Source of the DNA: Candidatus Omnitrophota bacterium
GTDB taxonomy: Bacteria; Omnitrophota; Omnitrophia; Omnitrophales; JACROU01
Assembly: GCA_029261035.1 (NCBI GenBank)
Contig: JAJDCD010000025.1
Span: 130,926-194,925 of the forward strand
Reading direction: 5' to 3'
DNA: 64,000 nucleotides
Shown: positions 7,531 through 57,092 of the stretch, piece by piece
Position numbering within the stretch: position 1 is the first letter of the stretch
Layout of the letters: the number at the start of each line of letters is the position of its first letter
The notes under the pieces: model-generated
Told to the model about the DNA's origin: nothing
The model's input: only the letters and a program-made list of their open reading frames with translations
Databases searched by the model: none
Position numbers and translations under genes: made by a program

Positions 7531-7536
7531 CAAGGG

Positions 7537-8459: not shown

Positions 8460-8476
8460 AACAGTTCGAAGTATAC

Positions 8477-12627: not shown

Positions 12628-12629
12628 AA

Positions 12630-14096: not shown

Positions 14097-14098
14097 TT

Positions 14099-15949: not shown

Positions 15950-15977
15950 ATTTTTAACTGTAATCCTAAGAGTTACA

Positions 15978-17263: not shown

Positions 17264-17406
17264 CTTCTTTTATCCCTTGCCCTATCGGGCTATCAGCAAT
17301 CAGCCTTCAGCGAAAATCAACTCATTGTCATTCTGATCCGCCTTTGGCGGAGAAGAATCTAAAACCATCTCTCTCAAGAGATCCTTCGTATGCACTCAGG
17401 ATGACA

Positions 17407-18366: not shown

Positions 18367-18390
18367 TAATTATCCTTTTTCAGCTCAACC

Positions 18391-18494
18391 AGCGGATAGC
18401 GCATAGCGTTTAGCGTATAGAAAAACAAAAAAACGCTTCATCTGTCTTTTTGACAAATGTCCCTATACGCTCCACGCTAAACGCTCTACGCTAT
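18391..18494. repeat. Inverted heptad array (AGCGNNT x4 / NNACGCT x4) forming a long hairpin in the nuoCD-nuoH spacer
   Basis: agcggatagcgcatagcgtttagcgtatag ...40-nt loop... ctatacgctccacgctaaacgctctacgctatcg. A related direct copy tagcgtttagcgtagagcgtatag is at 62637-62662. Confidence 0.6.
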
Positions 18495-20104: not shown

Positions 20105-20763
20105 TATTTATCTTCTTCCTTCTTTTCTTCCGTTTTTTCATCAAGCGTATCCAACGAAGAGTCCTTAACTGTTTCTATTTTTTGATCCGGACGAGGCCCA
20201 GCAGGCTTTTCTTCTCCTGGAGGCGTTGGCGACGGAGTTCCCGTTTCCGGTACCGCCAACACAACATCTTCTTGCCCTGCAACACCCGCAATAATTTTTC
20301 TTTGTAAAAGAAGTAAACCTTCGATAAGACCCTCAGGTCTTGGAGGACAGCCTGGGACATGCACATCCACAGGAATAATACGATCCACACCTTCAACAAT
20401 TGCGTATTGTCCTTCATACTGAAAAGGGCCTCCCCACATGGCACAGCCCCCCATAGCAATTACATACTTAGGAGAAGGCATTTGATCATAAAGCATTTTG
20501 ATTTTAGGAGCCATTTTTCTAGAAACAGTTCCTGCAACAATCATCAAATCCGACTGTCTTGGAGAAGCACGAAAAACACCAGCGCCAAAACGATCCAAGT
20601 CATATTTAGATGCACTTGCTGCCATCATTTCAATCGCACAACAATGAAGACCAAATGTGAGTGGCCACAATGAGTTTGCACGTGCAATATTTAATAACTT
20701 ATCGAGTTTAAAAAAACTAAACCCAGGGGAACCTGATTTTTGAGATGCTTCTACTGACGCCAT
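20104..20763 (-). CDS. nuoB: NADH-quinone oxidoreductase subunit B
   Basis: [16 protein letters not shown]...GGCA, plus a ~50-aa Pro/Glu/Lys-rich C-terminal extension. Confidence 0.85.
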
Positions 20764-22746: not shown

Positions 22747-22774
22747 AAGTAAATTTCGATTTATATAAAGTAGG

Positions 22775-24641: not shown

Positions 24642-25952
24642 TTAAATCAAAAGATTTCGGAATAAAACAGCAAAACCAAGGAAAGCGAAAAATCCCATAA
24701 CATCCGTAATGGTCGTTAGTATGATATTAGAACATTGCGCAGGGTCTAGGCCAAGCCCTTTCATACTTAACGGAATTGCAGCTCCGGCTAAACCTGCTAC
24801 CACCAAATTAACAATCATAGCCAGACCAATCACCATTCCAAAGAAAGGATTTCCTACCCAAACCCAGGCGACACCCGCAGTCACCAAACCAATAATCAAA
24901 CCATTAACAGCCCCTATCCAAGCTTCTTTAAGAATCAAAGCTAAAGCACGGTTCGATGGAATCTCTCGCATTACAAGTCCTCGCATTACCACAGCTAAAG
25001 ACTGAGCCCCTGCATTCCCACCTTGCCCCGCAACAACAGGAAGAAATACAGCTAAAACAGTAATTTGCGCAATAATACCTTCGAACAAAGCTACGACGGA
25101 TGCAGCAAGAAACGCGGACAACAAATTTAAATGAAGCCAAGGCAATCTTTTCTTCAGCGAAAACCCCACAGTAGAAAAAGCACGTTCGTCACCACCCGCA
25201 CCAAACATCTTTTGAATATCTTCCGTTGCCTCTTCTTGTACATCTCCAATTAATTGTTCAGCCTTAACAACCCCAAGTAAATGATTTTCATTATCAATAA
25301 CGGGAGCCGCAAAGAAACGGCGTTTAGATAACTCTTCAGCCACTTGCTCTCTATCCATAAATGAGTTAACAGAAAAAATATCTTTACGCGTAATCTCAAC
25401 TAGCTTCGCTTCTCCAGAAGCCAACATCAAATCTCTCATATTCATCACACCAACAAGATGGTTCTCTTCGTCAACCACATAAGCATAAGATGCAGGAGCT
25501 TTTCTACGCGCCAAAACTCTAATTTTTCTAATCACATCCTTAACCCGAGTTTCAGAATAGAAAGCCAAAAAGTCCGTAGTCATAATTCGACCCGCACTGT
25601 CCTCTGGATAAGTTAAATATTCTCTAATTCTATTTTTTAATCTCTCAGGCAAAATAGCTAAAAAACTCTCTCTTTTTTCATTAGGTAAATCAAGAAAGAT
25701 AGCAGCACCTTTTTGAGGGTCTAAATGATCTAAAATATGGGCAAACAACTCCGGAGAAACATCTTCTAATAAACTGGCAACCAAGTTAACCTGCATATGC
25801 GCCAAAGCTTGGGAAGTTAAGTGAGGAGGTAAACCTTTAATAACAGTGACAGCATCATCTTCGGGCAACGTTTCCAAAACATGGACAGCCGACATCAAAT
25901 CTTCTTCAAAATATTTTTCAACTAAGGGCATTAAGGATGCTGGTGTCGACAT
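24642..25952 (-). CDS. mgtE: Magnesium transporter MgtE
   Basis: MgtE_N, then a CBS pair, then the C-terminal 5-TM MgtE domain. Confidence 0.85.
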   Translation of the reverse strand: MSTPASLMPLVEKYFEEDLMSAVHVLETLPEDDAVTVIKGLPPHLTSQALAHMQVNLVASLLEDVSPELFAHILDHLDPQKGAAIFLDLPNEKRESFLAILPERLKNRIREYLTYPEDSAGRIMTTDFLAFYSETRVKDVIRKIRVLARRKAPASYAYVVDEENHLVGVMNMRDLMLASGEAKLVEITRKDIFSVNSFMDREQVAEELSKRRFFAAPVIDNENHLLGVVKAEQLIGDVQEEATEDIQKMFGAGGDERAFSTVGFSLKKRLPWLHLNLLSAFLAASVVALFEGIIAQITVLAVFLPVVAGQGGNAGAQSLAVVMRGLVMREIPSNRALALILKEAWIGAVNGLIIGLVTAGVAWVWVGNPFFGMVIGLAMIVNLVVAGLAGAAIPLSMKGLGLDPAQCSNIILTTITDVMGFFAFLGFAVLFRNLLI

Positions 25953-25972: not shown

Positions 25973-27154
25973 TTATTCTTCTTTGATATCTATTTCAACA
26001 TTAATTCTTCTAGGCTCCACGTTTTCCAAAACAACTTTTTTGTTCGAAAAAGTAACGTCTGAATTTGAAATAAACACACTTTGTTTTTCTTTTCTTACGT
26101 CTAATGTTCTTAGAATTAGGTGGATCGTATTCGCATTAGCAAAATAAAACGACCTTCTAGGTCCGGAAAAGCTAACCTCTACGACTTCAGGGTCTGTTTT
26201 TACCTCAGTAACACTTTTAGGTAATTTAGCGTATTCTACAGGAATTTCGTAGGTTTTATAAACTAATTTAGACCCATCTACTAAAACAAACCATAAAGCT
26301 AAGGACATAACTAATGCAATGACCTTTTCTCTATAGTTTTTCTTAAAGAAATGCTGCCATGGCTTCTTTTCTTCTTCTGGAGCAATCACCTTGTAGAATT
26401 TCTCTAGAAGACGGCTTAAAGCATTCGCATCTTCTATTTCCTTAATCTCCGCTTTATTAGCATAGGATATACTCCCTCTCTCTTCCGAAACGATCAAACA
26501 CAAAGCATCTGAGAGCTCTGACAAACCTAAAGCAGCAGCATGTCGTGTTCCTGACTGGCCCAATTTCTTCATATTCTTAGACAAAGGCAAATGAGACCCA
26601 ATTTGAGAAATTCGATTCTTTTCAACAATCACAGCACCATCATGTCCTGCAGAATGCGGATCGAAAATACTCTTTAAAATAGGCTCACTCAACTTCCCAT
26701 CAAGCTCAACACCACCTTCTAAATGTCTCAAGATTAAATCTTTGCCTCGGATAACAATTAAAGCCCCAATACTCTCACGAGACAAATCCATAATTGTCCT
26801 CACAAGAACTTCTGTTTCAGGTCTTGTAATTCGCTCCCGCCCTCTTATCTTGAGCCTTCGCTTCAATCCAAAAAGTGCAATCTGTTCAAAGAAATGCCTT
26901 AACTCTTCCTGAAAAATAACCACAAGTGCTATTAAAAAAACAGCAAAAAAACCTTCAAAAATAGTAGATGTGAGATACAGATTAAACTGTCTGGACAATA
27001 AATAAATGAGAGCAACAATAAATATCCCCGTCAACACAAACGCTGCTTTAGTCTTCTTAAACCACACAAGAATACTATAAACAACCAGCGTCATAAAAAG
27101 AATATCAATCAACCCCGACACACCCATTTCCTTCAAAAAACTCAACACACCCAT
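25973..27154 (-). CDS. cdaA: Diadenylate cyclase CdaA with a C-terminal TM + YbbR-like extension
   Basis: 3 N-terminal TM helices. DAC motifs GALIVI, DGAVIV and GTRHAAALGLSELSDALCLIVSEERGSISYA. An extra ~125 aa follows (TM VIALVMSLALWFVLV plus a beta-rich YbbR-like region). Confidence 0.8.
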   Translation of the reverse strand: MGVLSFLKEMGVSGLIDILFMTLVVYSILVWFKKTKAAFVLTGIFIVALIYLLSRQFNLYLTSTIFEGFFAVFLIALVVIFQEELRHFFEQIALFGLKRRLKIRGRERITRPETEVLVRTIMDLSRESIGALIVIRGKDLILRHLEGGVELDGKLSEPILKSIFDPHSAGHDGAVIVEKNRISQIGSHLPLSKNMKKLGQSGTRHAAALGLSELSDALCLIVSEERGSISYANKAEIKEIEDANALSRLLEKFYKVIAPEEEKKPWQHFFKKNYREKVIALVMSLALWFVLVDGSKLVYKTYEIPVEYAKLPKSVTEVKTDPEVVEVSFSGPRRSFYFANANTIHLILRTLDVRKEKQSVFISNSDVTFSNKKVVLENVEPRRINVEIDIKEE

Positions 27155-27524: not shown

Positions 27525-28589
27525 CTAACCCCTAAACGGATAAACCCACTTTACCTTCAAAGGAATCCTAACCCTCCTCATAAACCTCTGCACCAACTCT
27601 TTCTCCACCTTAATCCAAAATGCCTCATCCCTATTCTTCCCAATCTTAAAACTCCCCCCTCCAATACTCCCATGCCCCCCCGCATCTCCTCGATCATCAA
27701 AAATATCTCTCAACACTTCACCTGCTTGAGCATTAGGAGTTGAAGTTCTCAACGAAACATGAAGTTTCCCATTATATCTTCCCGTAGTTAAAGACCAACG
27801 GATTCCTTTGTACGTAAGCAGAAAATCAGCAATTTGAGAAACAAGATCTGGATTCTTAACGTCACCCAAATGAGAAAAAATAAGGCTTCGACATTTTACA
27901 GCTGTCTGAATTCCTTTTCCCAAACTAACAAAAAAACTGCGTGAAAGAGCCGATGGATTTTGAATACGTGCCAAAGCCCTCAAATCGCAATAAGGAAGTA
28001 TGTCTAAATAAACACGAATTACTTTCGGATGTTTTGCTCGATATAAATTTAATGTATCCGAAATAATCCCATATGCAAGAGCCGTTGCAATCCGCACTGG
28101 AATTTCTTTACCTAAGATTAATAACGCTTGCGCCAATATAACCGATGTCGCTCCACAGTCAGGATCCACAATGCTCAAATCAGCATTTGGCTTCTCTTCC
28201 GAAGGGTGTTGATCTAGAACTATTCTAGAACGTCTGCTTTTGGGAAATGGATTGTTTTTAAAATTAGGCTGGGTATCTACGAGGGCCACATTAGAATATT
28301 TCTTAAAATCATTTTTCCTTAACTTGTGTACTGGAATTTTAAGCGTATGGACTAATTCTTTATTTTCAACTCTCCCTATAATGCCTCCATAAACCATTTT
28401 AGACGGAACCCCATAATTACTCTCTACAATATGTTGCAAAGCAAAAGCACTCGCAATGGCATCTGGATCTGGAAAATCGTGCATCAAAATTAAAAGCGGA
28501 TTGATATCCTCTTTTTTTTCTTTTAAAAAAGACAATAGCTTCTCTGCATTTAGCTGAATATGATCTGGTTTTATTTTCATCTTCTTCAT
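27525..28589 (-). CDS. DHH-family phosphoesterase (NrnA-like; possible pApA/c-di-AMP phosphodiesterase)
   Basis: N-terminal DHH region LILMHDFPDPDAIASAFAL and a DHHA1-like GGHGSIGGGS. It lies immediately upstream of cdaA. Confidence 0.6.
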   Translation of the reverse strand: MKKMKIKPDHIQLNAEKLLSFLKEKKEDINPLLILMHDFPDPDAIASAFALQHIVESNYGVPSKMVYGGIIGRVENKELVHTLKIPVHKLRKNDFKKYSNVALVDTQPNFKNNPFPKSRRSRIVLDQHPSEEKPNADLSIVDPDCGATSVILAQALLILGKEIPVRIATALAYGIISDTLNLYRAKHPKVIRVYLDILPYCDLRALARIQNPSALSRSFFVSLGKGIQTAVKCRSLIFSHLGDVKNPDLVSQIADFLLTYKGIRWSLTTGRYNGKLHVSLRTSTPNAQAGEVLRDIFDDRGDAGGHGSIGGGSFKIGKNRDEAFWIKVEKELVQRFMRRVRIPLKVKWVYPFRG

Positions 28590-28725: not shown

Positions 28726-30060
28726 TCAACGTAAATTCTCTTCAACTAGCAACTTTTCTAAATACTCTCTAAGCTTCGCGCTATCATGTCGAACAAGATC
28801 CGTTTCATGGCCAATATCAGAAACAATTACTTTAGCTTTTGTAACTTTTTGAATTTTTTCCTTATCTTTACCATTAATAAGATTTTGGCCTTTTTTGGCA
28901 TATTCCTGAATCGCTTTTCCAGAGACCTTGCTATTAGACAAAATTACATAATCCAAACAGTCAGCCTGAAGATATTTAATTATTTCTGCAATATGATCCG
29001 AGGCATCAAAGTTGGTTGTTTCACCAGGCTTTGTCATTAAATTACAAACATAAATTTTCTTTGCCTTAGATTGTTGAATCGCTTCCTTAACACCCCCAAC
29101 CGTTAAATTAGAAATAACGCTCGTAAACAAATCTCCAGGGCCCACAACGAGCAAGTCCGCATTGATAATTGATGAATAAACATCCATGGTACAATTTACT
29201 TTTGGCTCATGCCACGTATCTGCGATCTTTAAATTAGGATCCCTTCCATTCAGAATATCAATGTTCGTCTCCCCTTTAATGACAGAACCATCCTCAAAAC
29301 GAGCTGTTAAATCCGTTAATTGATCCGTAACAGGAAGTACGATCCCTTGAATATTCAGGATATCTCCCAACATCTTCACCGCACTTACCATCGATCCCGT
29401 AATATCGTTAAGTGCCGCTAAAAACAAATTACCAAAGCTATGTTCTGCTAAATCTCCACCTTTATTAAATCGATACTGAATAATTTGATTCATCACTTCT
29501 GGGGCATTTGATAAAGCAACTAAACTTCGTCGAATATCTCCCGGAGGTAAAATCCCCATAGACTCTCTTAATCTGCCAGAAGACCCCCCACTATCACTCA
29601 TAGTAACAATAGAAGTTAAAAGAACATTTGGAATTTTTTTAATCCCAATCAGCAGATTAAACAATCCTGTACCACCTCCAATACATGTGATTCGAGTCTT
29701 GCGGTTTATGACCGAACTTACATAAGCAATAAATTCTCTATGGTTAAAAGGTCGTTGGATAATATGACTACATCCTAACTCTTTAACTGTTAATATGTTT
29801 TCTACAGAAATACCAGAAGCCACAAATAAATATTGGCTCTTTGAACCAGCAATCTGTTTAATTAGCTCTGTTTTCTCTGTTAAATTCTCAATATTTTCCG
29901 CATCCCCATCAATGACAATGCAGTCCATACTTTGCTGTCTGATAAGCAATTCTATTTCATTAATCGTATTAGCCCAAAATATATTCACGTCCAATGGACT
30001 TAAAATATCATGAACTTCTTTTACAAATAAATTCTCTCCAAAAATGAGTATCTTTTTCAT
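28726..30060 (-). CDS. Receiver-domain fused to a YvcK/UPF0052 (CofD-like, GlmR-type) protein
   Basis: The first ~115 aa are a CheY-like receiver fold. The remainder has YvcK signatures CIGGGTGLFNLL and VTMSDSGGSSGRLR. Confidence 0.7.
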   Translation of the reverse strand: MKKILIFGENLFVKEVHDILSPLDVNIFWANTINEIELLIRQQSMDCIVIDGDAENIENLTEKTELIKQIAGSKSQYLFVASGISVENILTVKELGCSHIIQRPFNHREFIAYVSSVINRKTRITCIGGGTGLFNLLIGIKKIPNVLLTSIVTMSDSGGSSGRLRESMGILPPGDIRRSLVALSNAPEVMNQIIQYRFNKGGDLAEHSFGNLFLAALNDITGSMVSAVKMLGDILNIQGIVLPVTDQLTDLTARFEDGSVIKGETNIDILNGRDPNLKIADTWHEPKVNCTMDVYSSIINADLLVVGPGDLFTSVISNLTVGGVKEAIQQSKAKKIYVCNLMTKPGETTNFDASDHIAEIIKYLQADCLDYVILSNSKVSGKAIQEYAKKGQNLINGKDKEKIQKVTKAKVIVSDIGHETDLVRHDSAKLREYLEKLLVEENLR

Positions 30061-30105: not shown

Positions 30106-31224
30106 TTAAACAATTTGCTTACTTAAAAACTGAATAATTCTCTTTGAAGCTTTTCCATCCCCATACGGGTTAGGTTTTCCCTGAAGTTTTTTTGTTAACT
30201 CTGGATTATCCAAACATCTCTTAGTCTCTTTAAAAATACGTTCAGGCTCTTGCCCCACAATACGACTAAATCCTGCTTTCACACCCTCAGGTCGTTCTGT
30301 TACATTTCTAAGAACAAGAATGGGTTTATAAAATGACGGAGCTTCCTCTTGAATCCCACCAGAATCCGTTAAAATCAAATCGGAGTGTTGCATCATATAA
30401 ACCAAAGAATCATAAGCTACAGGCTCAATTAAATGGATATTAGGGGTATTCTTTAACATAACTTTAACTACTTTTTGAACGTTAGGGTTTAAATGGACTG
30501 GGTAATAAATGTCTATGTCTGGATAGAAACGTGCCACTTTTTGAATTCCTTGACACAGCTTCTTGAAAGGAGCACCAAAACTTTCTCTTCGATGCGCTGT
30601 CAGCAATATGTTTCTCTTATTTAAATCTAAATGAATGGGTGGTTTTTTTCTCTTCTTGAGAATTCTTTTCATTTCTATTAAAGCGTCAATTCCCGTATTT
30701 CCTGTCTTAACAATATTCTTTTTAGGCACACCCTCTTTAACAAGCCTCGAAAAAGCCAAAGAAGTAGGTGCAAAATGAAAATCAGCAACTTGGGTTATTA
30801 ACCGACGATTAATTTCTTCTGGAAAAGGCTCATATTTATCATCACTACGCAACCCGGCCTCGACATGTCCCACAGGAATTTTTAAATAAAAAGCAGATAA
30901 AGCGACCAAAAAAGCCGTTGAAGTGTCCCCTTGAACCAAAACACAATCTGGTTTTATTTTCTTTAACATGCGTTCCATGTTTTTTAAAATACGCTCACTT
31001 AAAGAAGATAGGGATTGGTTATGTGTCATTAATTTCAAGTTGTAATCCGCTTTTAAATTAAAAAGCTTCATCACTTGATTTGCCATGTGAATATGCTGCC
31101 CGGTCAAAAGAACAATAGGTTGAAGCTGCTTACTCTTTTTCATTTCGATTGCTAAGGGTGCCATTTTCAAAGACTCGGGTCTAGTTCCCCAACATAAAAG
31201 TATTTTCTTTTTAGATTTAGCCAC
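30106..31224 (-). CDS. wecB: UDP-N-acetylglucosamine 2-epimerase (non-hydrolysing)
   Basis: ILLCWGTRPE...QPIVLLTGQH...VQGDTSTAF...GHVEAGLRS. Confidence 0.85.
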   Translation of the reverse strand: MAKSKKKILLCWGTRPESLKMAPLAIEMKKSKQLQPIVLLTGQHIHMANQVMKLFNLKADYNLKLMTHNQSLSSLSERILKNMERMLKKIKPDCVLVQGDTSTAFLVALSAFYLKIPVGHVEAGLRSDDKYEPFPEEINRRLITQVADFHFAPTSLAFSRLVKEGVPKKNIVKTGNTGIDALIEMKRILKKRKKPPIHLDLNKRNILLTAHRRESFGAPFKKLCQGIQKVARFYPDIDIYYPVHLNPNVQKVVKVMLKNTPNIHLIEPVAYDSLVYMMQHSDLILTDSGGIQEEAPSFYKPILVLRNVTERPEGVKAGFSRIVGQEPERIFKETKRCLDNPELTKKLQGKPNPYGDGKASKRIIQFLSKQIV

Positions 31225-31327
31225 GAGACTCCTTGTCTTCTAAAGTTGAAATTGAAACTAAAAAGTAAAACACCCTATGTGCAAACTCTCAAAATTGCTC
31301 GTTTGTTTTCTTGAAAATTCTTAATTT

Positions 31328-33061
31328 CTAAAACCGATAACTAATGTAACTAGAAGCACTCGTTGCTTCAATGCTTGAATTATCTCGACTCCAAGATGTT
31401 CCAGCAACCAAATTCATTCGATCCATCAAACGATAACTCAAACTTCCATAGAGAGAAAGTGTATTACGACCTTCATCCGTCACATCATAAGAAGTCCCCG
31501 TCGTCATCGTTAGCTTCTTTGTTAAAGTCCAATATTTTTCCATGTTAAGCGTATTCGTAATCAAAGTTAAATTCCCATCTGTGTTTTCAATAGAAACAAA
31601 GAAGTCGCTCACATCGTTTATGATGTCATAAGTAAACCGGTAGGACATCAACAGGTTGTGTTGTTTTAAAAAAGCTCTAGAAATTCCAAACCCCAAAGTG
31701 TTAGAACGATTTCTACTCGGGTCCCAATAAGTTTGATGGTGATGTAGCAAACTTACTTCCCAACGATCTTTAGGGATCCATGTAATTGAATTTCTTAAAC
31801 CCCAACGCGGGTTATTTCTCAAATTTTTAGTTTCCCATTTCAAATCAATACGATGAACCACTTTTTCAAATAGCTTGGACTGCAAACCTACTCCATAGGT
31901 GAATGAAGTTGTTTTGTGTGTATCATCATGCCGAGAAGATGCAGAAACAAAAGCTTTAAATGCTGCTGTAATAGGATGTGCATACTCTAAAGTATTGTAA
32001 ACAGATTCAGAACGAATTCGATTGGGAACACCTCTATCAGCCCCTTGTCGATTTCTTTCTTGATAAAAAAGAAAAGAATGCGCTAATGTGGGAGCTAAAG
32101 CTAAATTAATCTGTGAGAAACGAGAACTAATACGGCGAGAAGCATCCGGATTTGAATCCGACAATTGAGAATAGACTTTCTCTGCAGCCCCATATTTCTG
32201 ATTATAAAAATAGGTGTTTCCTAATTCTTCCAGAACCTCCGTATCATTAGGAGAACTTGCTAATAGCTTTTCGTAAGCTTCAGAAGCTTTGGTCCAAGAT
32301 TGTAATTCAGAATAAATTTGCGCTAATTCTTTAAGAGCCCTTGAATTCGTTGGGTCTTTAATAACCACTTGTTCATAAACAACTATGGCGTCCTTAGTTT
32401 TCCCAGCCCAATTTAACACCTGAGCTTTCTTCAGTAGGGCATCAACATCATCTGGATCTTCAGCTAAAACCTGATCATAAACAGCCACGGAAGCATCCCA
32501 CTGTTGTTGCCAATTCAAAAAATCCCCCATCTCTTTTTTAGCGGCTAAAAATTCAGGATCTTCTTCAATTATTTTATTCAATTCTTTAACTGCCTTCTCC
32601 CGATAACCATAGTTCTCTAGAGCTCGAGGCCAAGCAAGGCGCATATTGTTATCGTAAGGTCTTAAAAAAGCTGCTTTTGCAAAATATTTCTCAGCTCGAT
32701 ACAAGTCTCCAACAGCAACATAAACTTCGGCTGCCTCATTCAAAATAAATGGGTTATCCGGGTGACGGCGCATCAAAACATCATATTTTTCTTTCGCAGA
32801 TCCTTTAGCACGAAGGTAAGAATAAGAACGTGCTTCACGAAGAAGCTTTTTTGAATCTTTTCCAAGAGTGGATGTATCCCAATCCTCCTTTCCATCTGAG
32901 GTTTGAGCATTTGCTTGAGGTGAAAAAAATCCTTTTAAGAATTTTTTTACTGAAAACTGAGTTTTATCCTCAGGTTGCCCAGCGTAACAAGTTCCAATAG
33001 AAAAAGTAATTAAAAGAAAAACTACAAAAAATTGCCGTGCTGAAAAAATTTTTCTACTCAT
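31328..33061 (-). CDS. TPR-repeat protein with a C-terminal beta-barrel-like domain (BcsC/PgaA-like exopolysaccharide exporter candidate)
   Basis: Signal peptide, then several TPR-like repeats in the N-terminal half. A beta-rich C-terminal half ends in the aromatic residues ...ISYRF. Confidence 0.45.
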   Translation of the reverse strand: MSRKIFSARQFFVVFLLITFSIGTCYAGQPEDKTQFSVKKFLKGFFSPQANAQTSDGKEDWDTSTLGKDSKKLLREARSYSYLRAKGSAKEKYDVLMRRHPDNPFILNEAAEVYVAVGDLYRAEKYFAKAAFLRPYDNNMRLAWPRALENYGYREKAVKELNKIIEEDPEFLAAKKEMGDFLNWQQQWDASVAVYDQVLAEDPDDVDALLKKAQVLNWAGKTKDAIVVYEQVVIKDPTNSRALKELAQIYSELQSWTKASEAYEKLLASSPNDTEVLEELGNTYFYNQKYGAAEKVYSQLSDSNPDASRRISSRFSQINLALAPTLAHSFLFYQERNRQGADRGVPNRIRSESVYNTLEYAHPITAAFKAFVSASSRHDDTHKTTSFTYGVGLQSKLFEKVVHRIDLKWETKNLRNNPRWGLRNSITWIPKDRWEVSLLHHHQTYWDPSRNRSNTLGFGISRAFLKQHNLLMSYRFTYDIINDVSDFFVSIENTDGNLTLITNTLNMEKYWTLTKKLTMTTGTSYDVTDEGRNTLSLYGSLSYRLMDRMNLVAGTSWSRDNSSIEATSASSYISYRF

Positions 33062-35226
33062 TAAGAATCCTTAAAAGGGTCTCTAAACCCATATTTTCTT
33101 CTTCTGTAAATAAATGCGCCTAAAACACTTGAAATTAATAATAGAACGCCCAACCACATAAAAAATGATTTATCTGTTTTTGATTTCTTTTTACCTTTAC
33201 GTTTACTTTCACCTGGCCCATAGGAATACCATTGATCTTTTTCATTAATCAACACGACATCCCCATCCCACTGAGAGGAGATTTCTCGGTTCAAAAGATT
33301 CATGGTAGCCAACTCTACAAGCTCATCGGTCTTAGCCGAAACGACCATAATATTCCGATTCTTATTCCAAGGAGAAGTTAAAAGCTCTAACAAAGCTACA
33401 TTTTGCAGGAATTGAGGCAAAATTTCAATCCTTGTTCTTTTTGGCTGGTCCGTCTGAACATCGATTGGAAGTGGCAGCTTTTTATTAACCTCTTCTATCA
33501 ACGGATGTCTAGACAAACTCCCAATCAGAATAAAATCAAACTCTTTCTTCATCTCATCTGTAACTTCCGATGTTCTCAAAATATTAAATTTAGGTGTTTC
33601 GTTATAAGGCATCAAGGACGCTAGCATATATACCGAATTATAAGCAGCCTCAAACTCTTTAGTTGTAGCATCCTCTGGAATAACTATTTGAATAGGGTTC
33701 AATCCACGTTCCCCGTAAAAAGACGCTGGGAAATTTTGAAACCCTCTCTCTTCTGTAAGGAAATGAGGTACATGAAAATAAGAATTATCATGAATAATAA
33801 GCCATGCTCTATCATAATAACGACTTTCACAGTCATTTTGACCCACATCCAAATAAACACGGATGCGCACCAACAAATCTTCATCCTCTAAAACCTCTTC
33901 TGGAAGATTGAATTTCCAACGAGTACGGCCACCTCCCCCTGCAAGTTTAAATGTTTCTAAGGGTTTATCATTAACCAAAACCGTAAGAATAGACTTATCT
34001 GGATCTAATAGTGGAGAATAACTCGCATCTAGAAAAAGCGATGTGCCTGGTAAGAGTTCCCAATGAGGGGGAACATCATAATAAAACTCCACAGAACTCT
34101 CAAATGTTCCTGCAATTTTAGAAGTCACATAACCCAAATCTCTAAACGTAGGACTAGCCACATCGGCAATAATTTTTTTCTCTGGTAAATCCTCGGAAGT
34201 TTCGATAACAGCAAAGTTTCCTATCATTTTCTCCACTAAATCAGGAAAAGTTAACGCCTCCGCTGTTTTTTCAAGGGTGCTCTGATTCGCCCCTGAAATG
34301 ATAGTAATCACTCTTTTCTGCTCAACAGGAGATCGAAGCATCACAACAACACCTTTATTCTCGTTTAATTGACCTAGAGCACCTGGGGGGATTGTCCGGT
34401 TAAATTCTTGTTGAAAGACATTCCTATCCAACGTTCCAATGGAAATAAGACTCGATCTTTCTAAATCATTTTTAGGGGGTTTTTTTCCTATAAAAACTTT
34501 TACTCTTGGATACAAAAAGGGCTCCGAAAATCCAAAATATTGAATTAAAACCGCTGCTGATCTCCTCTCCTCAATAGTAGGATCCTCTGGAAGAACAATT
34601 AAAAGAGGCGTTCTCCCTTTTTCAAATTTTTCTACTTTTAAGTAAGGGTCTGGGAACAATTCAATATTATCTACAGACTTTGTTTGATAAGTCATCTGCA
34701 GTTCACTTTGCTTATGCACCACTACCCAGTTTGCAGGATTCTCTAAATCATGACAAGGTCTTGTAATGTTTTGAATCGTATAAAAACGAAACTGAATTGA
34801 GTTATACCCCGACTTTAAAAGAGATTGAGGAATCGATAGTTCGTGAGGTTGAATTTCAGAATTTTCAGGCAATAAATTCATACTATGGATAGGCTGTTCA
34901 TTTACAAGTACGGTTACCGTAGAGGTCGGTGCTAATATATTTGAGTGACTCATTAAATAGATAAGCCGAAGGTTTTGAGTTATTTCCACATTTCTAGGAA
35001 CAAGAAACCAGGCTGTAAATTGATTGAACAGTCCCGTCCCAACATAATCCTTACCTTCTAGGATCTTAAGATTAATGTCTCTGGGAATATCTGCTGTCTG
35101 CAGCAAAACTTTACTTCCCTCAACAACTCCCTTAACAGGCCCTTCATTTTTCTTTGCCTGAACTTCCATAGGCAAAAGGATTGTGCTTACAAAAAAAATT
35201 AAAACAAAAGTTGATAATTTTCTCAC
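33061..35226 (-). CDS. BcsB-like periplasmic synthase co-subunit (signal peptide, large periplasmic region, C-terminal TM anchor)
   Basis: 721 aa whose architecture and position immediately downstream of the GT2 synthase mimic BcsB. Sequence similarity is not verified. Confidence 0.35.
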   Translation of the reverse strand: MRKLSTFVLIFFVSTILLPMEVQAKKNEGPVKGVVEGSKVLLQTADIPRDINLKILEGKDYVGTGLFNQFTAWFLVPRNVEITQNLRLIYLMSHSNILAPTSTVTVLVNEQPIHSMNLLPENSEIQPHELSIPQSLLKSGYNSIQFRFYTIQNITRPCHDLENPANWVVVHKQSELQMTYQTKSVDNIELFPDPYLKVEKFEKGRTPLLIVLPEDPTIEERRSAAVLIQYFGFSEPFLYPRVKVFIGKKPPKNDLERSSLISIGTLDRNVFQQEFNRTIPPGALGQLNENKGVVVMLRSPVEQKRVITIISGANQSTLEKTAEALTFPDLVEKMIGNFAVIETSEDLPEKKIIADVASPTFRDLGYVTSKIAGTFESSVEFYYDVPPHWELLPGTSLFLDASYSPLLDPDKSILTVLVNDKPLETFKLAGGGGRTRWKFNLPEEVLEDEDLLVRIRVYLDVGQNDCESRYYDRAWLIIHDNSYFHVPHFLTEERGFQNFPASFYGERGLNPIQIVIPEDATTKEFEAAYNSVYMLASLMPYNETPKFNILRTSEVTDEMKKEFDFILIGSLSRHPLIEEVNKKLPLPIDVQTDQPKRTRIEILPQFLQNVALLELLTSPWNKNRNIMVVSAKTDELVELATMNLLNREISSQWDGDVVLINEKDQWYSYGPGESKRKGKKKSKTDKSFFMWLGVLLLISSVLGAFIYRRRKYGFRDPFKDS

Positions 35227-36539
35227 AACATCCTCAATTTAACTCTAGGTGTTTTATCCCAAAAAGGTTGCTTCCCTTTTTGCTCTGTTTTCTCAAAAAA
35301 ACTTTTAATATTTAAAAAAATCCAAGCTTGCGAATAAGTGAAATACATGAGAATCGCAAGCCCTATATTTTTAAGGGTATTTTCTGAAGTCTCTTCAAAA
35401 CTCATTGTCACAGCAATAGATACAACAAATAAAGTCAGAGCCATAAACCACGTTAAAAACAAGGGGCCCGACACAGATACATGAGCAATATTAATCACAC
35501 CCAAAACGAATACGATATCAGAAACCACAATGGTAAACAAGAGAATTCCATAGACTGAAGCCATGTAAAAAATTTGTTTAATATTTTTAAAACTAAAATG
35601 CTCTCTGCTCAAATATTTCTTAACAATATATTGATTCCCCTTCAACCACCGCATTCGTTGTTTTTGCCAAACCTTCCATGATTCCGGCTCCTGTTCCCAA
35701 GTAATAGCAAATGGATTGAAAGCAACATAATAACCCATATCTAAAATACGTAACGTTAGTTCCGTGTCTTCTGTTAAGGCTGATTCATCCCACCCTCCCA
35801 ATTTCTCCAGTATTTCTCGCTTAAAAACAAAATTCGTGCCGGGAATCATGGCTACCTTATCTTTATACCACCTTCCCGCCTGAACCATCCATTGATGAGA
35901 AATGAATTCCAAATTAATAAATTTGGTTAACAGGTTCTTTTTTCTATTTTGAGTTCTTACCTTTCCACACACAACCGCATTTTTAGGATCGGAAAGCATT
36001 TCAGCCATAAGGTACTTTAGCGTCGTTGGCTCTGGATTATTATCTGCGTCATAAATGCAAATATAATCTCCTTTAGCTACTGCCATCGCTTGATTCAACG
36101 CAAAAGATTTTCCTTTCCTCCCCTTTCCTTTAGGTACATGAATCGGCTTAATTATTTTGAAACTTTTAGCATAACTATCTAAAAGTTGTTTGGTATTATC
36201 CGTAGATTCATCATTGATAATCAAAACTTCATACCGGTCTGAAGGGTAATCAAGCTCAATCATCGAATCCATGGTTGATTCAATCACATTTTCTTCATTA
36301 CTTGCTGGAATCATAATACTAACGAACGGAGGGTCCTTAAAATTGGATAAATTCTCTTCTAACCTTTGGCGTCCTGACATAAAAAATCGATAAGCCATAA
36401 TTACAAGAGAAGAATGATAAAGCAGAACGATCCAAGTAATTATTAGGCAAACAAGAAAAACAATATCAATAAAAGCATTTTGAAACATAGAGGCCTGCCT
36501 ACTCTTTATCTTTATGTTTTTTTCTAAAGTGACTTTCAT
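35223..36539 (-). CDS. Processive family-2 glycosyltransferase (PgaC/cellulose-synthase-like exopolysaccharide synthase)
   Basis: N- and C-terminal TM helices. Motifs D, DAD, TED and QRMRW (QxxRW). Confidence 0.75.
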   Translation of the reverse strand: MKVTLEKNIKIKSRQASMFQNAFIDIVFLVCLIITWIVLLYHSSLVIMAYRFFMSGRQRLEENLSNFKDPPFVSIMIPASNEENVIESTMDSMIELDYPSDRYEVLIINDESTDNTKQLLDSYAKSFKIIKPIHVPKGKGRKGKSFALNQAMAVAKGDYICIYDADNNPEPTTLKYLMAEMLSDPKNAVVCGKVRTQNRKKNLLTKFINLEFISHQWMVQAGRWYKDKVAMIPGTNFVFKREILEKLGGWDESALTEDTELTLRILDMGYYVAFNPFAITWEQEPESWKVWQKQRMRWLKGNQYIVKKYLSREHFSFKNIKQIFYMASVYGILLFTIVVSDIVFVLGVINIAHVSVSGPLFLTWFMALTLFVVSIAVTMSFEETSENTLKNIGLAILMYFTYSQAWIFLNIKSFFEKTEQKGKQPFWDKTPRVKLRML

Positions 36540-38394
36540 GATAAGAAGTTCTAGAAATAAAAATCTTTAAAATAATTCCAACAAAAACAATAGTTAAGCC
36601 AAAAAAGAACCACACAACCCAACGTTGAACTGTTTCTACTTGATTAGAGGTGTCTCCAATAATAAATCCATGCACTTTCCCCATAAAACGTCTAATCGGA
36701 GAGGGTCTCTTCTTTGAGGTTTCAACCACAAACATACTATTCTCTCTATCAGGCACCAAAACCAAAGCTTGTCCATCTGGAGCTAATTTCCACCTTTCAT
36801 CCAAAGGTTCATAGTTCTCATTTAATAAAAAGGATCTTAACCATTCATTTTTCATTTTAACCTTCAACATTCGAGCGTTCCCATCCAGGGTCACCATTTT
36901 CTCGGTAGGTTTAAAAATTTCATACTGATCTAGCCCTGTAAATACTGTATGTTCATCTCCCAACACAACTCCGGGAACTTGCCTCAAATCAAAGGGGGAA
37001 TACCCTAAATCCTTAAGCCCTTTAATCACCTGCATCAGGTATTTAGGTTTAAAATAAGGATGATAAAAAAACCCAACCAAACTATCTCTAACGATACTAT
37101 AAGGTTTAGCATTTTGTATTTTCTTATCAGGATCTTCACCTTGCTCTAAACTCACGTAACCCAAATTTTCTGTGAGCAACGTAAAACCATAAATGTCTTT
37201 TGTCAGATAAGGAACCGATTGCGTTATTGTATAGGACTCATTCGAAACTTGTCGCTGCTCTACTGCTATGGAAAAATACTGGGATATAATTGAAAGAGAT
37301 CGCTCGCCTGCTGCATAGTGAGGCGTTTCCCAAGCAACAGGATACAACCCAAGACTGGCTAATTCCCTAATTCCTTTTCTCATTTTTTCATGAATTATTT
37401 GTTCGGTGTATTCTTCTATAGGTCGATCATTGGGGACATCCCAAAACTCATAACCTTCCCCCGACTCATTTTTCCATTGATGTGTATATCCATGTAAAAG
37501 AATAGCCCCTCCCATCGAAGCACAATCTTTAAGTACTTTCACTAAGTGAGGCCGTTCTTTCATATAAACAATTTTTTTTCCAGGTTGCTTGTAAACCGGA
37601 GTTACTGCCATCATAAATGGAACAGACTCCTCATAAAGTTCTTCACAAATATTTCTAAGCCTTGAGGGCTCTCGCATGGGATGAATATCCTCTAGACGAA
37701 CAAAGAAATGAGAGGAAATTTTATGGGGTTGCTGAAAAATTTCATGAAGAATATCAGCAAAGACAAGATTGGAAACACCGTAATAAATAGAATCTGACAC
37801 AAACCACAAGTTTCTAGCATGAATTGCAAAAGGAGCAAAACCAGAATCACTCAAAAATATTCCGTAAGTCTTTATATTTTTTCGATCCAATATTTCGGCC
37901 ACAAGAACCTGCTCATTATCTACTCTAGAGTACACTTGCTTATTATACGTAATGCTATTAAAACCTCCCGATTGGGAAAGAATTCGGAATTTAAAAGCTT
38001 CAGGATGCCTTTCTAGTAATTGTTGAATATTCCATCTCAGCCAAACAACACTCGTGGTAGGATATTTAGGAATATCATCAAGAAAAGCCTCTGGAATTTT
38101 ATTTTCCTTAAGGTTTCCAATATAGAAGACAACATCATAACGTTTAAGGAGTCCTGGAACATATTTATCTATAGGCACTCGCGCAATTTTGGGGTTAAAG
38201 TGACCAATCAAATTGGTGAGCATGATCGGCTCGACTGGAATTTTTAGTACGTTTTGATCAAACTGTTTAATGGGAGTGTCATGATACAGAATCAAAACAC
38301 GTGGAGCAGGCTCTTCTGTATGACCCACCATTGGAAAAAGAAAAGCACTAAGAAGAACAGAACCCGCTATAGCCCAAATACTAATCCGCATCAT
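36499..38394 (-). CDS. Periplasmic polysaccharide-deacetylase-like (DUF2334-type) protein with C-terminal TM
   Basis: Signal peptide. Region HFFVRLEDIHP...LLHGYTHQ resembles the deacetylase/DUF2334 fold. C-terminal membrane anchor. Confidence 0.35.
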   Translation of the reverse strand: MMRISIWAIAGSVLLSAFLFPMVGHTEEPAPRVLILYHDTPIKQFDQNVLKIPVEPIMLTNLIGHFNPKIARVPIDKYVPGLLKRYDVVFYIGNLKENKIPEAFLDDIPKYPTTSVVWLRWNIQQLLERHPEAFKFRILSQSGGFNSITYNKQVYSRVDNEQVLVAEILDRKNIKTYGIFLSDSGFAPFAIHARNLWFVSDSIYYGVSNLVFADILHEIFQQPHKISSHFFVRLEDIHPMREPSRLRNICEELYEESVPFMMAVTPVYKQPGKKIVYMKERPHLVKVLKDCASMGGAILLHGYTHQWKNESGEGYEFWDVPNDRPIEEYTEQIIHEKMRKGIRELASLGLYPVAWETPHYAAGERSLSIISQYFSIAVEQRQVSNESYTITQSVPYLTKDIYGFTLLTENLGYVSLEQGEDPDKKIQNAKPYSIVRDSLVGFFYHPYFKPKYLMQVIKGLKDLGYSPFDLRQVPGVVLGDEHTVFTGLDQYEIFKPTEKMVTLDGNARMLKVKMKNEWLRSFLLNENYEPLDERWKLAPDGQALVLVPDRENSMFVVETSKKRPSPIRRFMGKVHGFIIGDTSNQVETVQRWVVWFFFGLTIVFVGIILKIFISRTSYHESHFRKKHKDKE

Positions 38395-38412
38395 TATCCA
38401 AAGCTCCTTCTT

Positions 38413-39369
38413 CTAAGCATCAAGCTTATTTACGCCCAATTGTCCTCCTGATTTTAGGAGTCCTATGGTCTTCTTAATCTCTTTTTCACTTTCTTTAACT
38501 ATTTTTTGATGTCCCTTACCCAAGCTTTCTAAATCCTTAATAACGGCCTCCATCAACTTTTCAGGCAATCTACCTGTTTCAGGGTAATTAGCGACCCCTG
38601 CAATCAAATCAATATCCGCTCTTAATTTACGACCTCGATAATCGATTTGAACTTTTAATAGATTTTTTCTAATCCTCTCTAAGACAACGTCTGTTTCTGC
38701 GCGAGAAGTATCCGGCAAAATAAGCCCATAAAGTGAAACGCCTAATTTTGCTTTCTTATCTATATCCCGAGTACTTCGGCAAATAGATTCCGATAATTTT
38801 TTAGAAGCTTCAATGGATGCATCAATCCCCATGAGCCGCTGAAGATTATCTAAATTTCCAATTTGTAATAAGAGCAAAGTAAAATTTGCTAAAGAACGTT
38901 TAGACCGAGAACACTCCTCTTTTAAATCTTCCTGAAAAGTAACCTCATTCCCAACCATTCCCAATTGTCCAGATCGAAGCAATGATTCTAGTTGCCTAGA
39001 ATATTTTTTGAATAATTTCTCAACAAAAATAACACCATCACCCAGATACCCTCCTACGATAGCGCCTATTGGTATTAAAAAAAGCCAAACCATATCTTTT
39101 GTGGTTAAACCAAAACGAAGCTCAAGAACATAAGCCTGGAAGAAGTAATTACCTCCGTAAACGATCACACCCACTAATGAAGCAATGAGACCAAGGGTAA
39201 TTCCAAAGAAAACGGAAGCGATGATAACCGCGTATAGAATAAATACACACAAATAATCATCTGATGTCACTCTATTAGATAAAAGAACAAACTGCGTAAC
39301 CAACATAGAAAACAGCATCAACCCTGACACTACATATTTAATTTTTCTCGCATTAGATTGAATCATAAA
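38413..39369 (-). CDS. Membrane protein with degenerate GGDEF domain retaining the I-site (PelD-like c-di-GMP receptor candidate)
   Basis: 4 N-terminal TM helices, then a C-terminal GGDEF fold with RDID-KKAKL-GVSLY in place of RxxD-x5-GGDEF. The start is taken at MIQSNARK. The track ORF extends to 39459 and overlaps the upstream gene. Confidence 0.55.
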   Translation of the reverse strand, partial: FMIQSNARKIKYVVSGLMLFSMLVTQFVLLSNRVTSDDYLCVFILYAVIIASVFFGITLGLIASLVGVIVYGGNYFFQAYVLELRFGLTTKDMVWLFLIPIGAIVGGYLGDGVIFVEKLFKKYSRQLESLLRSGQLGMVGNEVTFQEDLKEECSRSKRSLANFTLLLLQIGNLDNLQRLMGIDASIEASKKLSESICRSTRDIDKKAKLGVSLYGLILPDTSRAETDVVLERIRKNLLKVQIDYRGRKLRADIDLIAGVANYPETGRLPEKLMEAVIKDLESLGKGHQKIVKESEKEIKKTIGLLKSGGQLGVNKLDA

Positions 39370-40487
39370 TTCTTCAATTTCCTCTCTAAAACATAGGTTA
39401 AAAGTACCTGCAAATGATCGAAAGAATGTCCACCCAACCCCACATAAGAACCTTCCCACAAAGATCCATTTTGAGTTTGAGATAGTATATTTACTCTATC
39501 TATAACAATATCATACAATTCTGACTCTTGCACCAGCACACATAAACGTCCTATAAGCGCGTAAACGACAATGCTTTCATAAGAGACCAACGCCTCTCCT
39601 GTAGAAGGCTCATACATCCCAAAGATCTTACCATCCTGAGCCCATTTTGACTTAATCACCTGTATAAAATTATTTACCGAAAAACCTTTTTCAGCCAAAT
39701 GAATAGCACAAATAACCTGATTAATAAAGTTCTTCTCAAAATCAAAATAAGTTTCTGTTTTCGTATTATAGCGATCATAAAAAAACCCAGATTTATGGGT
39801 TCCTTTAAGAAGAACTTCTAAAGATTTTTCGTAAATAGCTTTCCAATCGGAATCAATTTTAGACAATAAAAACATGCTTTCTAAATCCAAATAAGACAAA
39901 TCAATAACTAGCTCTCCGCTCTCATCTCCATCGTACATGGGTTGATGGAGCAAATATCCTTTATATTGAGCCTCATTTTTCATCGAATCAGCAAGTCTCA
40001 TTGCAGTTTCTCTATATTGTTTTTTACTCCACTTATCTTCCGCTTCTAGCAACGCTCGTACTGTTCTTAAATCATCAATGGTTGCTCCATAAGGATGAGG
40101 GATGGCTTCACCCTTCTCATCGATCTCAATCCTCCATGACAAGGAGTCATTTTTTAATAAAAAGTACTGCTGAATAATTTCTAATTGCTCATCAAATTCT
40201 TTTTCTAAATTTAATAATTCTAAAATCCAAAGCCACATACTTACTGTTTCGGACAAAGACTCACGAACATAATCTTCACGATAAGGAATTTTATCTGCTT
40301 TTATGGGATAAGTTTCTATCAGTCCAATCTCATTCGTGAGTTGAGTTCGAACATAATCCAAAGCTTCTTGAACCCCTCTATCCTCCGGATAACTTTTTAT
40401 AGATCCCTTAAATACGAAATAAGAAACTGCTATAACGAATAATGAAATACATAAAACCTTTATAGAAATAACGGCTTTTTTAGCCAT
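39363..40487 (-). CDS. Membrane-anchored glycoside hydrolase family 8-like (BcsZ-like endoglucanase candidate)
   Basis: N-terminal TM. LSETVSMWLWIL and ATIDDLRTVRALLEA resemble the GH8 catalytic Glu and Asp regions. Confidence 0.45.
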   Translation of the reverse strand: MAKKAVISIKVLCISLFVIAVSYFVFKGSIKSYPEDRGVQEALDYVRTQLTNEIGLIETYPIKADKIPYREDYVRESLSETVSMWLWILELLNLEKEFDEQLEIIQQYFLLKNDSLSWRIEIDEKGEAIPHPYGATIDDLRTVRALLEAEDKWSKKQYRETAMRLADSMKNEAQYKGYLLHQPMYDGDESGELVIDLSYLDLESMFLLSKIDSDWKAIYEKSLEVLLKGTHKSGFFYDRYNTKTETYFDFEKNFINQVICAIHLAEKGFSVNNFIQVIKSKWAQDGKIFGMYEPSTGEALVSYESIVVYALIGRLCVLVQESELYDIVIDRVNILSQTQNGSLWEGSYVGLGGHSFDHLQVLLTYVLERKLKNL

Positions 40488-52318: not shown

Positions 52319-52320
52319 CC

Positions 52321-57075: not shown

Positions 57076-57092
57076 TCTAGAAGCTCCAATAA

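Follow-up and report, generated by a model that had tools for sequence, protein, structure and literature searches.

The ydaJKLMN operon of Bacillus subtilis and the Pss system of Listeria are the described exopolysaccharide (EPS) systems that come closest to the locus considered here, which occupies positions 30106-40487 of a 64-kb stretch of contig JAJDCD010000025.1 from a Candidatus Omnitrophota bacterium (the window, meaning the whole stretch of DNA that was analyzed). The published order of the B. subtilis genes is a hydrolase, a receptor with four transmembrane helices and a degenerate GGDEF domain, YdaL (a DUF2334 protein), a glycosyltransferase family 2 (GT2) synthase, and a large extracytoplasmic subunit. 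The receptor, YdaK, has RxxR at residues 157-160 and the RxxD of an inhibitory site (I-site) at 202-205, with a degenerate SDERI five residues downstream. It binds cyclic di-GMP (c-di-GMP) with a dissociation constant (Kd) of about 1 uM, and the R202A and D205A mutants abolish EPS. B. subtilis cannot make EPS without YdaL, a protein with no assigned activity. The YdaJ-N polymer is still undefined, with lectin data suggesting alpha-galactose (Gal) or N-acetylgalactosamine (GalNAc). The Listeria Pss polymer is a chain of beta-1,4-linked N-acetylmannosamine (ManNAc) with alpha-1,6-Gal branches. Its synthase, PssC, is a GT2 protein without a PilZ domain, PssD has been described as a BcsB orthologue, and PssE is an I-site GGDEF receptor that is essential for synthesis and binds c-di-GMP with a Kd of 0.79 uM. 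PssZ, a member of glycoside hydrolase family 126 (GH126), degrades the ManNAc-Gal polymer.

The ORF listing of the window places seven co-directional genes in the locus, all on the minus strand, and the five core genes among them probably form a Yda/Pss-type, c-di-GMP-dependent EPS system that is adapted to a two-membrane envelope. A preliminary description had already recognized the seven genes, and the domain assignments made there were borne out by Pfam and NCBIfam searches. However, where it saw a hybrid of cellulose, poly-N-acetylglucosamine (PNAG), and Pel parts, the five core genes correspond to one coherent and described system in the ydaJKLMN order. The sequence features expected of the Yda/Pss type are all present, i.e., a PilZ-less GT2 synthase, a degenerate-GGDEF receptor, a BcsB-like subunit, a DUF2334 protein, a GH126 hydrolase, and the gene order that joins them. 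The core is filed with the Yda/Pss type and not as a Bcs/Pga/Pel hybrid because of this order, the match of the hydrolase to PssZ, and the identities of the GT2 synthase.

Relatives of the locus were collected with a DUF2334 profile from one genome per species, which gave 80 loci whose ORFs were searched with eight window proteins. At least 10 Firmicute loci have the five-gene order, including those of Tepidibacter, Brevibacillus, Paenibacillus, Cohnella, Sporomusa, and Acidaminobacter, with identities to the window of 40-45% for the GT2 synthase, 28-38% for the DUF2334 protein, 20-28% for the receptor, 28-30% for the GH126 hydrolase, and 20-24% for the BcsB-like subunit. Genes six and seven, which encode a tetratricopeptide repeat (TPR) protein and the epimerase WecB, are absent from these five-gene blocks. 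The full seven-gene order is seen only in a contig from a JGI metagenome with its Logan twin (L002/L003), a Candidatus Omnitrophota metagenome-assembled genome from groundwater (MAG; L004/L005/L008), a second Omnitrophota MAG (L010), and a MAG labelled Actinomycetes (L011). The first four block genes are seen in a truncated contig with the label Actinomycetota (L009). Within the loci found, the full block is present in three Omnitrophota lineages and the one MAG labelled Actinomycetes, and the closest relatives of the source organism at the EPS locus are Candidatus Omnitrophota MAGs. The seven genes keep their order in relatives whose receptors are 64%, 47%, 42%, and 25% identical to that of the window, and so the arrangement is not due to chance. 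Several of the ORFs overlap by 1-4 nt and others lie 10-20 nt apart, the only larger gaps being 103 nt before and 45 nt after the epimerase gene.

One point weighs against the placement with the named operons. Genomes of B. subtilis and Listeria are absent from the 80 loci, and the link to the Yda and Pss operons themselves draws on the PssZ match, the Firmicute loci, labels of 'YdaL' at JGI, and published descriptions. Block loci are labelled Actinomycetota, Actinomycetes, and Bathyarchaeia (L009, L011, and L052). The TPR/beta-rich gene of L011 would not be expected in a monoderm, and these MAGs seem likely to be mis-binned or mislabelled.

Table 1. Genes of the EPS locus and other features of the 64-kb window; aa, amino acids
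Feature	Position	Strand	Basis or remark
Membrane-anchored GH126 glycoside hydrolase (YdaJ/PssZ-like), 374 aa	39363-40487	-	PDB sequence search
Four-transmembrane-helix degenerate-GGDEF I-site receptor (YdaK/PssE-like), 317 aa	38413-39366	-	GGDEF Pfam, E 2.3e-12
DUF2334 (YdaL-type) extracytoplasmic protein with N- and C-terminal transmembrane segments, 631 aa	36499-38394	-	PF10096, E 2.3e-48
Processive GT2 synthase (YdaM/PssC-like) without PilZ, 438-aa ORF	35223-36539	-	GT2 Pfam families, E 1e-32
BcsB-like periplasmic subunit (PssD/YdaN-like), 721 aa	33061-35226	-	PF03170, E 1.9e-49, residues 83-629
Signal peptide, TPR superhelix, and beta-rich C-terminal domain, 577 aa; putative outer-membrane export porin	31328-33061	-	Pfam TPR
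Non-hydrolysing UDP-GlcNAc 2-epimerase (WecB), 372 aa	30106-31224	-	TIGR00236, 440.7 bits (cut-off 210)
Possible accessory gene: receiver-like domain fused to YvcK/GlmR-type UDP-GlcNAc-binding protein	28726-30060	-	TIGR01826, 320.9 bits (cut-off 196)
DHH/DHHA1 phosphoesterase	27525-28589	-	just downstream of locus; with CdaA, the c-di-AMP genes
CdaA-type diadenylate cyclase	25973-27154	-	just downstream of locus
MgtE	24642-25952		after c-di-AMP genes
ClpX-like AAA+ protein, 517 aa	40645-42198	+	NF003745, 348.6 bits, just below cut-off 359
MoxR AAA / DUF58-VWA / BatA-type 'aerotolerance' operon	50327-58151	-	contains 663-aa and 587-aa proteins without Pfam match
Second GT2 glycosyltransferase	9375-10559	-	
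Nuo (complex I) cluster	11209-20763		
Polysacc_synt_3 flippase-like protein	21247-22809	-	
FIST-domain sensor protein	22775-23977	-	

The hydrolase provides a direct tie to a named system. In a search of PDB sequences it matched two GH126 proteins, C. perfringens CPF_2247 (3REN, E 1.5e-27) and Listeria PssZ (6R2M, E 1.8e-11), and the GH126 catalytic set is aligned at E80 (LSET), D138/R141 (TIDDLR), and Y199 (LSYLDL). It had been described at the outset as a GH8-like, BcsZ-like membrane hydrolase. The hydrolase with a transmembrane helix (N-terminal, at 6-24) stands, but BcsZ does not, with 22 bits against a cut-off of 299 for the BcsZ model NF008305, and the match to Pfam Glyco_hydro_8 reaches just 24.9 bits (cut-off 24). 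The GH126 enzyme probably trims or releases the polymer.

Control by c-di-GMP would reside in the receptor. Its mechanical ORF encodes 348 aa and reaches 39459; the most likely start is Met31 at 39366, and the resulting 317-aa form is identical to the database protein P0001. Four hydrophobic segments precede the GGDEF domain, three of them flagged by a hydropathy scan (9-27, 39-57, and 91-109) and one (about 58-80) read by eye from the sequence. A HMMER alignment to WspR puts RDID (RxxD, 200-203) on the I-site RSSD and GVSLY (209-213) on GGEEF, with exactly five residues (KKAKL) between the two, just as had been noted from the bare sequence; the RxxR motif is at 154-157. In an alignment of 38 non-identical homologues from Omnitrophota, Clostridia, Bacilli, and Negativicutes, R200, D203, and R157 are found in every sequence and R154 is Arg or Lys in 36, whereas GG[DE]EF is found in none and the five former GGDEF positions are highly variable. 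An invariant I-site next to a drifting GGDEF site is, at the level of sequence, the signature of selection on I-site ligand binding and not on catalysis. Binding of c-di-GMP by the receptor appears likely from this conservation and from the experiments with PssE and YdaK, which together support the initial proposal that c-di-GMP acts through a separate degenerate-GGDEF protein. The suggested likeness to PelD was not upheld. Because the receptor has no GAF domain by Pfam and no PelD structure is found among its PDB sequence-search matches, it is placed with YdaK and PssE, with PelD as a functional analogue only.

A different possibility is that the degenerate GGDEF protein is a structural or scaffold subunit that is deaf to c-di-GMP, or that it binds another nucleotide, with control being transcriptional or passing through the receiver-YvcK and c-di-AMP genes near the locus. 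Weighing on this side and against the c-di-GMP switch, a motif scan of the 64 kb of the window and of loci of about 20 kb from its relatives found no intact GG[DE]EF cyclase, although such scans cover little sequence, i.e., 64 kb of a 388-kb contig plus short loci. A CdaA and a DHH/DHHA1 phosphoesterase are encoded just downstream, the receiver-YvcK gene travels with the block, and a hybrid histidine kinase is inserted in the L010 block. Yet across several phyla the I-site residues are invariant and the former active site is free to vary, YdaK depends on these residues, and the domain in PssE binds c-di-GMP, making a receptor deaf to c-di-GMP improbable. The receptor gene itself can be duplicated. 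In Phascolarctobacterium, receptor paralogues are found on both sides of the GT2 gene (GGDEF-GT2-GGDEF-DUF2334-BcsB; L006 10001-13025 and L071), and both paralogues retain the RxxD and RxxR residues. In L010, the Omnitrophota MAG, the kinase gene (6984-8543; REC-HisKA-HATPase with two REC stretches) is found between the GH126 and receptor genes.

The GT2 synthase probably starts at Met18 (~36488), giving 421 aa, because its relatives are 419-420 aa long. The D/DxD/TED/QxxRW motifs reported initially are found as DAD164, TED256, and QRMRW294, and transmembrane helices are at 22-40, 331-349, and 360-378. Pfam matches only GT2 families in this protein; there is no PilZ domain, in agreement with the preliminary description, and no MshEN or other C-terminal domain. 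Against 40-45% for synthases of the Firmicute five-gene blocks, its identity is 26% with PgaC of E. coli and 25% with BcsA, and there is no BLAST match to NfrB. All of the curated PgaC, BcsA, and NodC models score the protein far under their cut-offs, with PgaC_IcaA (TIGR03937) as the best at 164.5 bits against 422 and the CelA/BcsA models at 70-78 bits (TIGR03030, 78 against 699; NF008558, 70 against 992). The 721-aa protein encoded next is BcsB-like, as had been expected. In addition to its PF03170 match, it finds E. coli BcsB structures at E 6e-4 and has transmembrane-like segments at 4-22 (signal-like) and 688-706 (a C-terminal anchor).

A BcsB domain, a hydrolase of the GH8 clan, and a TPR protein at the position of BcsC could also be expected of an unusual cellulose (beta-1,4-glucan) synthase operon. 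This is very hard to credit, given a synthase without PilZ, the low scores with the CelA/BcsA and BcsZ models, and the deacetylase-like protein and UDP-N-acetylglucosamine (UDP-GlcNAc) epimerase, which glucan synthesis would not need; a BcsB-like subunit is also part of the Pss system, whose polymer is not cellulose. Membership in the Bcs systems was rejected on the same PilZ and model results and on the hhalign comparison of the C-terminal domain of the TPR protein with the BcsC barrel (0.5-1.1% probability).

The DUF2334 protein belongs to a family with almost no literature, and it has no PDB relative by sequence; homologues with 46% identity carry the JGI name 'YdaL'. A model made with AlphaFold2 (AF2) from a 40-sequence alignment has a mean predicted local distance difference test (pLDDT) of 90.8 and a predicted TM-score (pTM) of 0.87. 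Its top Foldseek match is the Pel modification enzyme PelA (9CGY, E 5e-12, 602 columns), followed by the heparan sulfate N-deacetylase NDST1 and many deacetylases and esterases of carbohydrate esterase family 4 (CE4), with TM-scores of 0.6-0.7 on the target. Class-I glutamine-amidotransferase-like (GATase1-like) folds are also matched, e.g., HisH and PhzE. According to the PelA preprint, a mixed alpha/beta domain of PelA has PhzE and ThuA-like structures as neighbours, and PelA also has a CE4/CE18-like deacetylase domain and a beta-rich region; because of these neighbours, the amidotransferase-like matches are assigned to the N-terminal domain of the DUF2334 protein. The model can tentatively be read as a PelA-like three-domain module minus the hydrolase domain. 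Invariant in the 40 sequences are R233, E235, D236, H301, H305, H359, and H445, and D236/H301/H305, with their HxxxH spacing, resemble the CE4 metal triad. It is a reasonable inference from the model and the conserved residues that the protein is a putative deacetylase with a CE4-like core. The accounts of Listeria Pss that were consulted count against this assignment: the polymer is described as N-acetylated and deacetylation goes unmentioned, and for this reason the DUF2334 protein may have a role other than deacetylation.

A direct functional partnership of the DUF2334 protein with the synthase is supported by the existence of natural fusions of the two. P0151, P0153, P0164, P0170, and P0175 are single polypeptides of 880-970 aa in which DUF2334 is fused to a GT2 synthase; P0151 is named as coming from a Gaiellales MAG. 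The family is also found outside the EPS block, as indicated by six loci from Endomicrobiales, Burkholderia, and Ectothiorhodospiraceae (L012, L013, L063, L065, L082, and L087) in which only the DUF2334 gene matches the window proteins. A Bacillaceae variant (L028, L029, L033, L044, L067, L073, L077, and L084) has two tandem DUF2334 genes followed by a GT2 and then a GH126 gene, and no receptor or BcsB-like gene was detected there at the thresholds used.

The last gene of the block bears on the nature of the polymer. WecB matches PF02350 (E 1.4e-112) and, at equivalog level, TIGR00236. The wecB gene is last in the block in every full seven-gene locus and is also found near the C. difficile and other Firmicute loci. 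In the literature, linkage of wecB to a processive GT2 has been taken as a sign that E. coli NfrB makes a ManNAc polymer, and Scott et al. (2020; PMC7710045) predicted a partially deacetylated, ManNAc-rich polymer for a BcsA/BcsB-like locus of C. difficile that includes WecB and a CE4-like protein. Because wecB is fixed at the end of the block and because of the published ManNAc precedents, a polymer based on ManNAc is the best prediction and the most likely product, perhaps with some of its residues deacetylated. ManNAc- or GlcNAc-containing material had been suggested from the epimerase at the start, a suggestion that the equivalog match and the ManNAc precedents support. The polymer had also been called unpredictable; with the Listeria Pss and C. 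difficile precedents it is partly predictable. On the other side of the ledger, the locus has no second glycosyltransferase that could add a Gal branch, and the synthase finds its best curated family in PgaC_IcaA, even if far under the cut-off.

That last match makes a GlcNAc polymer the main alternative. The product would then be a PNAG-like poly-GlcNAc, partly deacetylated by the DUF2334 protein, and WecB would serve another pathway, e.g., cell-envelope glycans. PgaC is also the closest E. coli synthase (26%, 132 bits), a CE4-like core is common to the DUF2334 protein, PgaB, and IcaB, and the TPR region of the 577-aa protein has weak PgaA matches. Nevertheless, a PNAG-like product is rather unlikely, as the PgaC_IcaA score is far under its cut-off, the synthase is 40-45% identical to those of the Yda/Pss-type block, BcsB-like and GH126 partners are foreign to Pga, PgaD is missing, and wecB has a fixed position in every seven-gene locus and recurs near Firmicute loci. 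The hydrolase family moreover includes PssZ, which cleaves a ManNAc-Gal polymer. Membership in the Pga/Ica systems was rejected on the TIGR03937 score, the lack of a PgaD-like gene, the lack of a BLAST match between the DUF2334 protein and PgaB, and the hhalign probability of 5-9% for the PgaA barrel.

The 577-aa protein is what would carry the polymer across a second membrane. Following the signal peptide, TPR repeats extend over about 60-310 and a beta-rich C-terminal domain over about 316-577, ending in YRF. A search with the whole protein returned just three full-length relatives and otherwise generic TPR proteins, and an exhaustive search with the C-terminal domain gave 17 matches at E <=0.001 among 1.84 billion representative proteins. 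TPR repeats precede the domain in each of the nine members that were searched with Pfam. The last residue is Phe in all of the 12 members aligned, mostly within an aromatic-x-Phe motif, compared to FRF at the end of E. coli PgaA. In the 80-locus set, the TPR/beta-rich gene is confined to the seven-gene loci, whose organisms have an outer membrane, as shown by an autotransporter gene that adjoins L010 (upstream, at 2738-5701). An outer-membrane barrel or porin role is suggested by this architecture, by gene position, and by the phyletic pattern.

Several results speak against a barrel. Searches of PDB and Pfam with profiles built from 5 and 12 C-terminal domain sequences gave nothing significant, and hhalign gave probabilities of 5-9% for the E. 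coli barrel of PgaA, 0.5-1.1% for BcsC, and 0.1% for NfrA. In the AF2 model, which is based on a 3-sequence alignment, the TPR part is confident, but the C-terminal 260 residues, with ~14 strands, have a pLDDT <50. A crude beta-amphipathicity score did not separate the domain from controls, nor did it separate known barrels from soluble controls. Foldseek found only generic TPR superhelices for the model, similarity to the BcsC model NF008520 is at the TPR level only (29.7 bits against 858), and PgaA models match the TPR region weakly and far under their cut-offs. Thus, of the TPR plus beta-barrel exporter proposed initially, the TPR repeats hold, and the barrel half is still a matter of inference.

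These results would also fit a periplasmic or outer-membrane-associated TPR scaffold, with export through the outer membrane left to a protein encoded elsewhere. Such a scaffold is nonetheless unlikely, though it deserves serious consideration. The ~14 predicted strands and the aromatic-x-Phe end of the family argue for a barrel, as does the constant position of the domain after a signal peptide and TPR repeats, a plan shared with PgaA, BcsC, and NfrA. Weak OMP_b-brl matches are found in three of five members (best E 0.0034), and the gene is absent from all of the monoderm Firmicute loci. Two diderm Firmicutes, Phascolarctobacterium and Sporomusa, have next to the BcsB-like gene, on its far side, a gene for a protein of 581 aa or 664 aa (L006 16725-18470 and L047 14988-16982). 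This protein combines a signal peptide, a coiled-coil-like region rich in Ala/Glu/Lys, and a beta-rich C-terminus, which in L006 ends in ...SFYHTF. The two are 38% identical to each other, with no Pfam match and no similarity to the window TPR protein, and may represent an outer-membrane component that was recruited independently.

A working mechanism can be assembled from what was observed, namely the domains and motifs, the order of the genes, the conservation, and the likeness in structure; its presumptive elements are the binding of c-di-GMP, ManNAc as the substrate, a deacetylase activity, and a role as barrel or porin. WecB would convert UDP-GlcNAc to UDP-ManNAc, and the PilZ-less GT2 with its BcsB-like subunit would polymerize the sugar and move the chain across the inner membrane. 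The synthase would be on only when c-di-GMP occupies the RxxD/RxxR I-site of the four-helix receptor, as in Listeria PssE and B. subtilis YdaK. In the periplasm, the PelA-like DUF2334 protein, with its CE4-like metal site, would modify the chain, probably by partial de-N-acetylation, and the membrane-anchored GH126 enzyme could trim or release it. The TPR protein would receive the chain and pass it through its C-terminal domain, the presumed outer-membrane beta-barrel.

The surroundings of the locus are those of an ordinary chromosomal region. GC content is uniform over the window and the flanking genes are of housekeeping type (Nuo, MoxR/BatA, CdaA, and MgtE), and on these grounds a mobile-island origin was rejected, no obvious island being present. 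The gene directly after wecB encodes the receiver-YvcK fusion, whose N-terminal receiver-like domain has a weak Response_reg match and lacks the usual acidic pair (ILIFGEN). The fusion adjoins the block in L002, and in L004/L005/L008 it is found upstream together with a GlmS-type gene (GATase and SIS domains). This placement points to amino-sugar supply being coupled with the EPS locus. Terminator-like hairpins are found after the receiver-YvcK gene (28674-28656) and at 27334-27304 (14-bp stem), in a promoter and terminator scan of the window that performed no better than on shuffled sequence. The ClpX-like gene on the other side is divergent from the EPS locus and is the same neighbour in the closest relative (L002/L003). 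The second GT2, flippase-like, and FIST-domain genes flank the Nuo cluster and are unrelated to the EPS locus.

Taken together, it is possible, and proposed here tentatively, that some Omnitrophota-like diderms turned a 'Gram-positive style' Pss/Yda machine into a trans-envelope one. They would have done so by recruiting an undescribed and extremely rare outer-membrane export domain, with the 17 relatives noted above and unlike the PgaA, BcsC, NfrA, AlgE, and PelB-type barrels tested, alongside a DUF2334/YdaL protein acting as a PelA-like periplasmic deacetylase module and a precursor supply tied to the receiver-fused GlmR/YvcK. A locus that looked like a mosaic is now placed in an experimentally studied family, which brings predictions for an uncultured phylum: a switch operated by c-di-GMP at R200/D203, UDP-ManNAc as the substrate, and dispersal of the PssZ kind. 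The Pss/Yda family is extended from monoderm Firmicutes to diderms, with the parts added for the outer membrane in view. The export protein, from a tiny family without recognizable relatives, could be a new class of polysaccharide porin, and DUF2334/YdaL gains a first hypothesis of its function from the PelA-like model. The current understanding of synthase-dependent secretion is not overturned.

The comparison with B. subtilis YdaJKLMN is the closest by published description, with the same five components in the same order. The architecture of YdaK nearly superimposes on that of the window receptor, with RxxR at 157-160 in YdaK and 154-157 in the window and RxxD at 202-205 and 200-203, respectively. 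Unlike that operon, the window locus adds the TPR/beta-rich outer-membrane candidate and a dedicated wecB, its host belongs to a diderm candidate phylum, and identity to Firmicute homologues is low (20-45%). Listeria Pss has counterparts of PssC, PssD, PssE, and PssZ in the window, with PssZ directly homologous to the 374-aa protein, and its ManNAc-based product fits the window wecB. The Listeria system differs in having the receptor gene last, pssZ in a separate operon with cyclases, no outer-membrane component, and alpha-1,6-Gal branches, whereas the window locus has no Gal-transferase candidate. The C. difficile loci (L021, L042, and L054), equated with the locus of Scott et al. 2020 by content and not by coordinates, share the receptor, DUF2334, GT2, and BcsB-like genes as well as wecB. 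They come from a Gram-positive host, have no outer-membrane gene, and show no GH126 match, a GH113 hydrolase being reported instead (PMC7710045).

Among diderm systems, E. coli NfrB-NfrA-YbcH, the system of the N4 glycan receptor polymer, is alike in plan and without homology. It is c-di-GMP-activated, synthase-dependent, and linked to WecB, whose UDP-ManNAc is believed to be polymerized and exported via a TPR-plus-barrel protein. In contrast to the window locus, c-di-GMP is sensed by an MshEN domain fused to NfrB and not by a separate GGDEF protein, and BcsB, DUF2334, and GH126 components are missing. Nfr membership was rejected, with no BLAST match to NfrB, NfrA, or YbcH and 0.1% in hhalign to the NfrA C-terminus. 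Pel shares control through a separate inner-membrane degenerate-GGDEF I-site protein, and PelA, the best fold match of the DUF2334 model, draws CE4 and GATase1-like matches as that model does. The window system departs from Pel in its receptor without GAF, its GT2 synthase, and a DUF2334 protein without the PelA hydrolase domain; Pel membership was rejected on the missing GAF domain and PelD structure match and on the absence of PelF (GT4), PelG, PelE, and PelC from the locus. The Yda/Pss core is thus already known, and what is new is a diderm version of it with a rare, unclassified export protein and a dedicated wecB.

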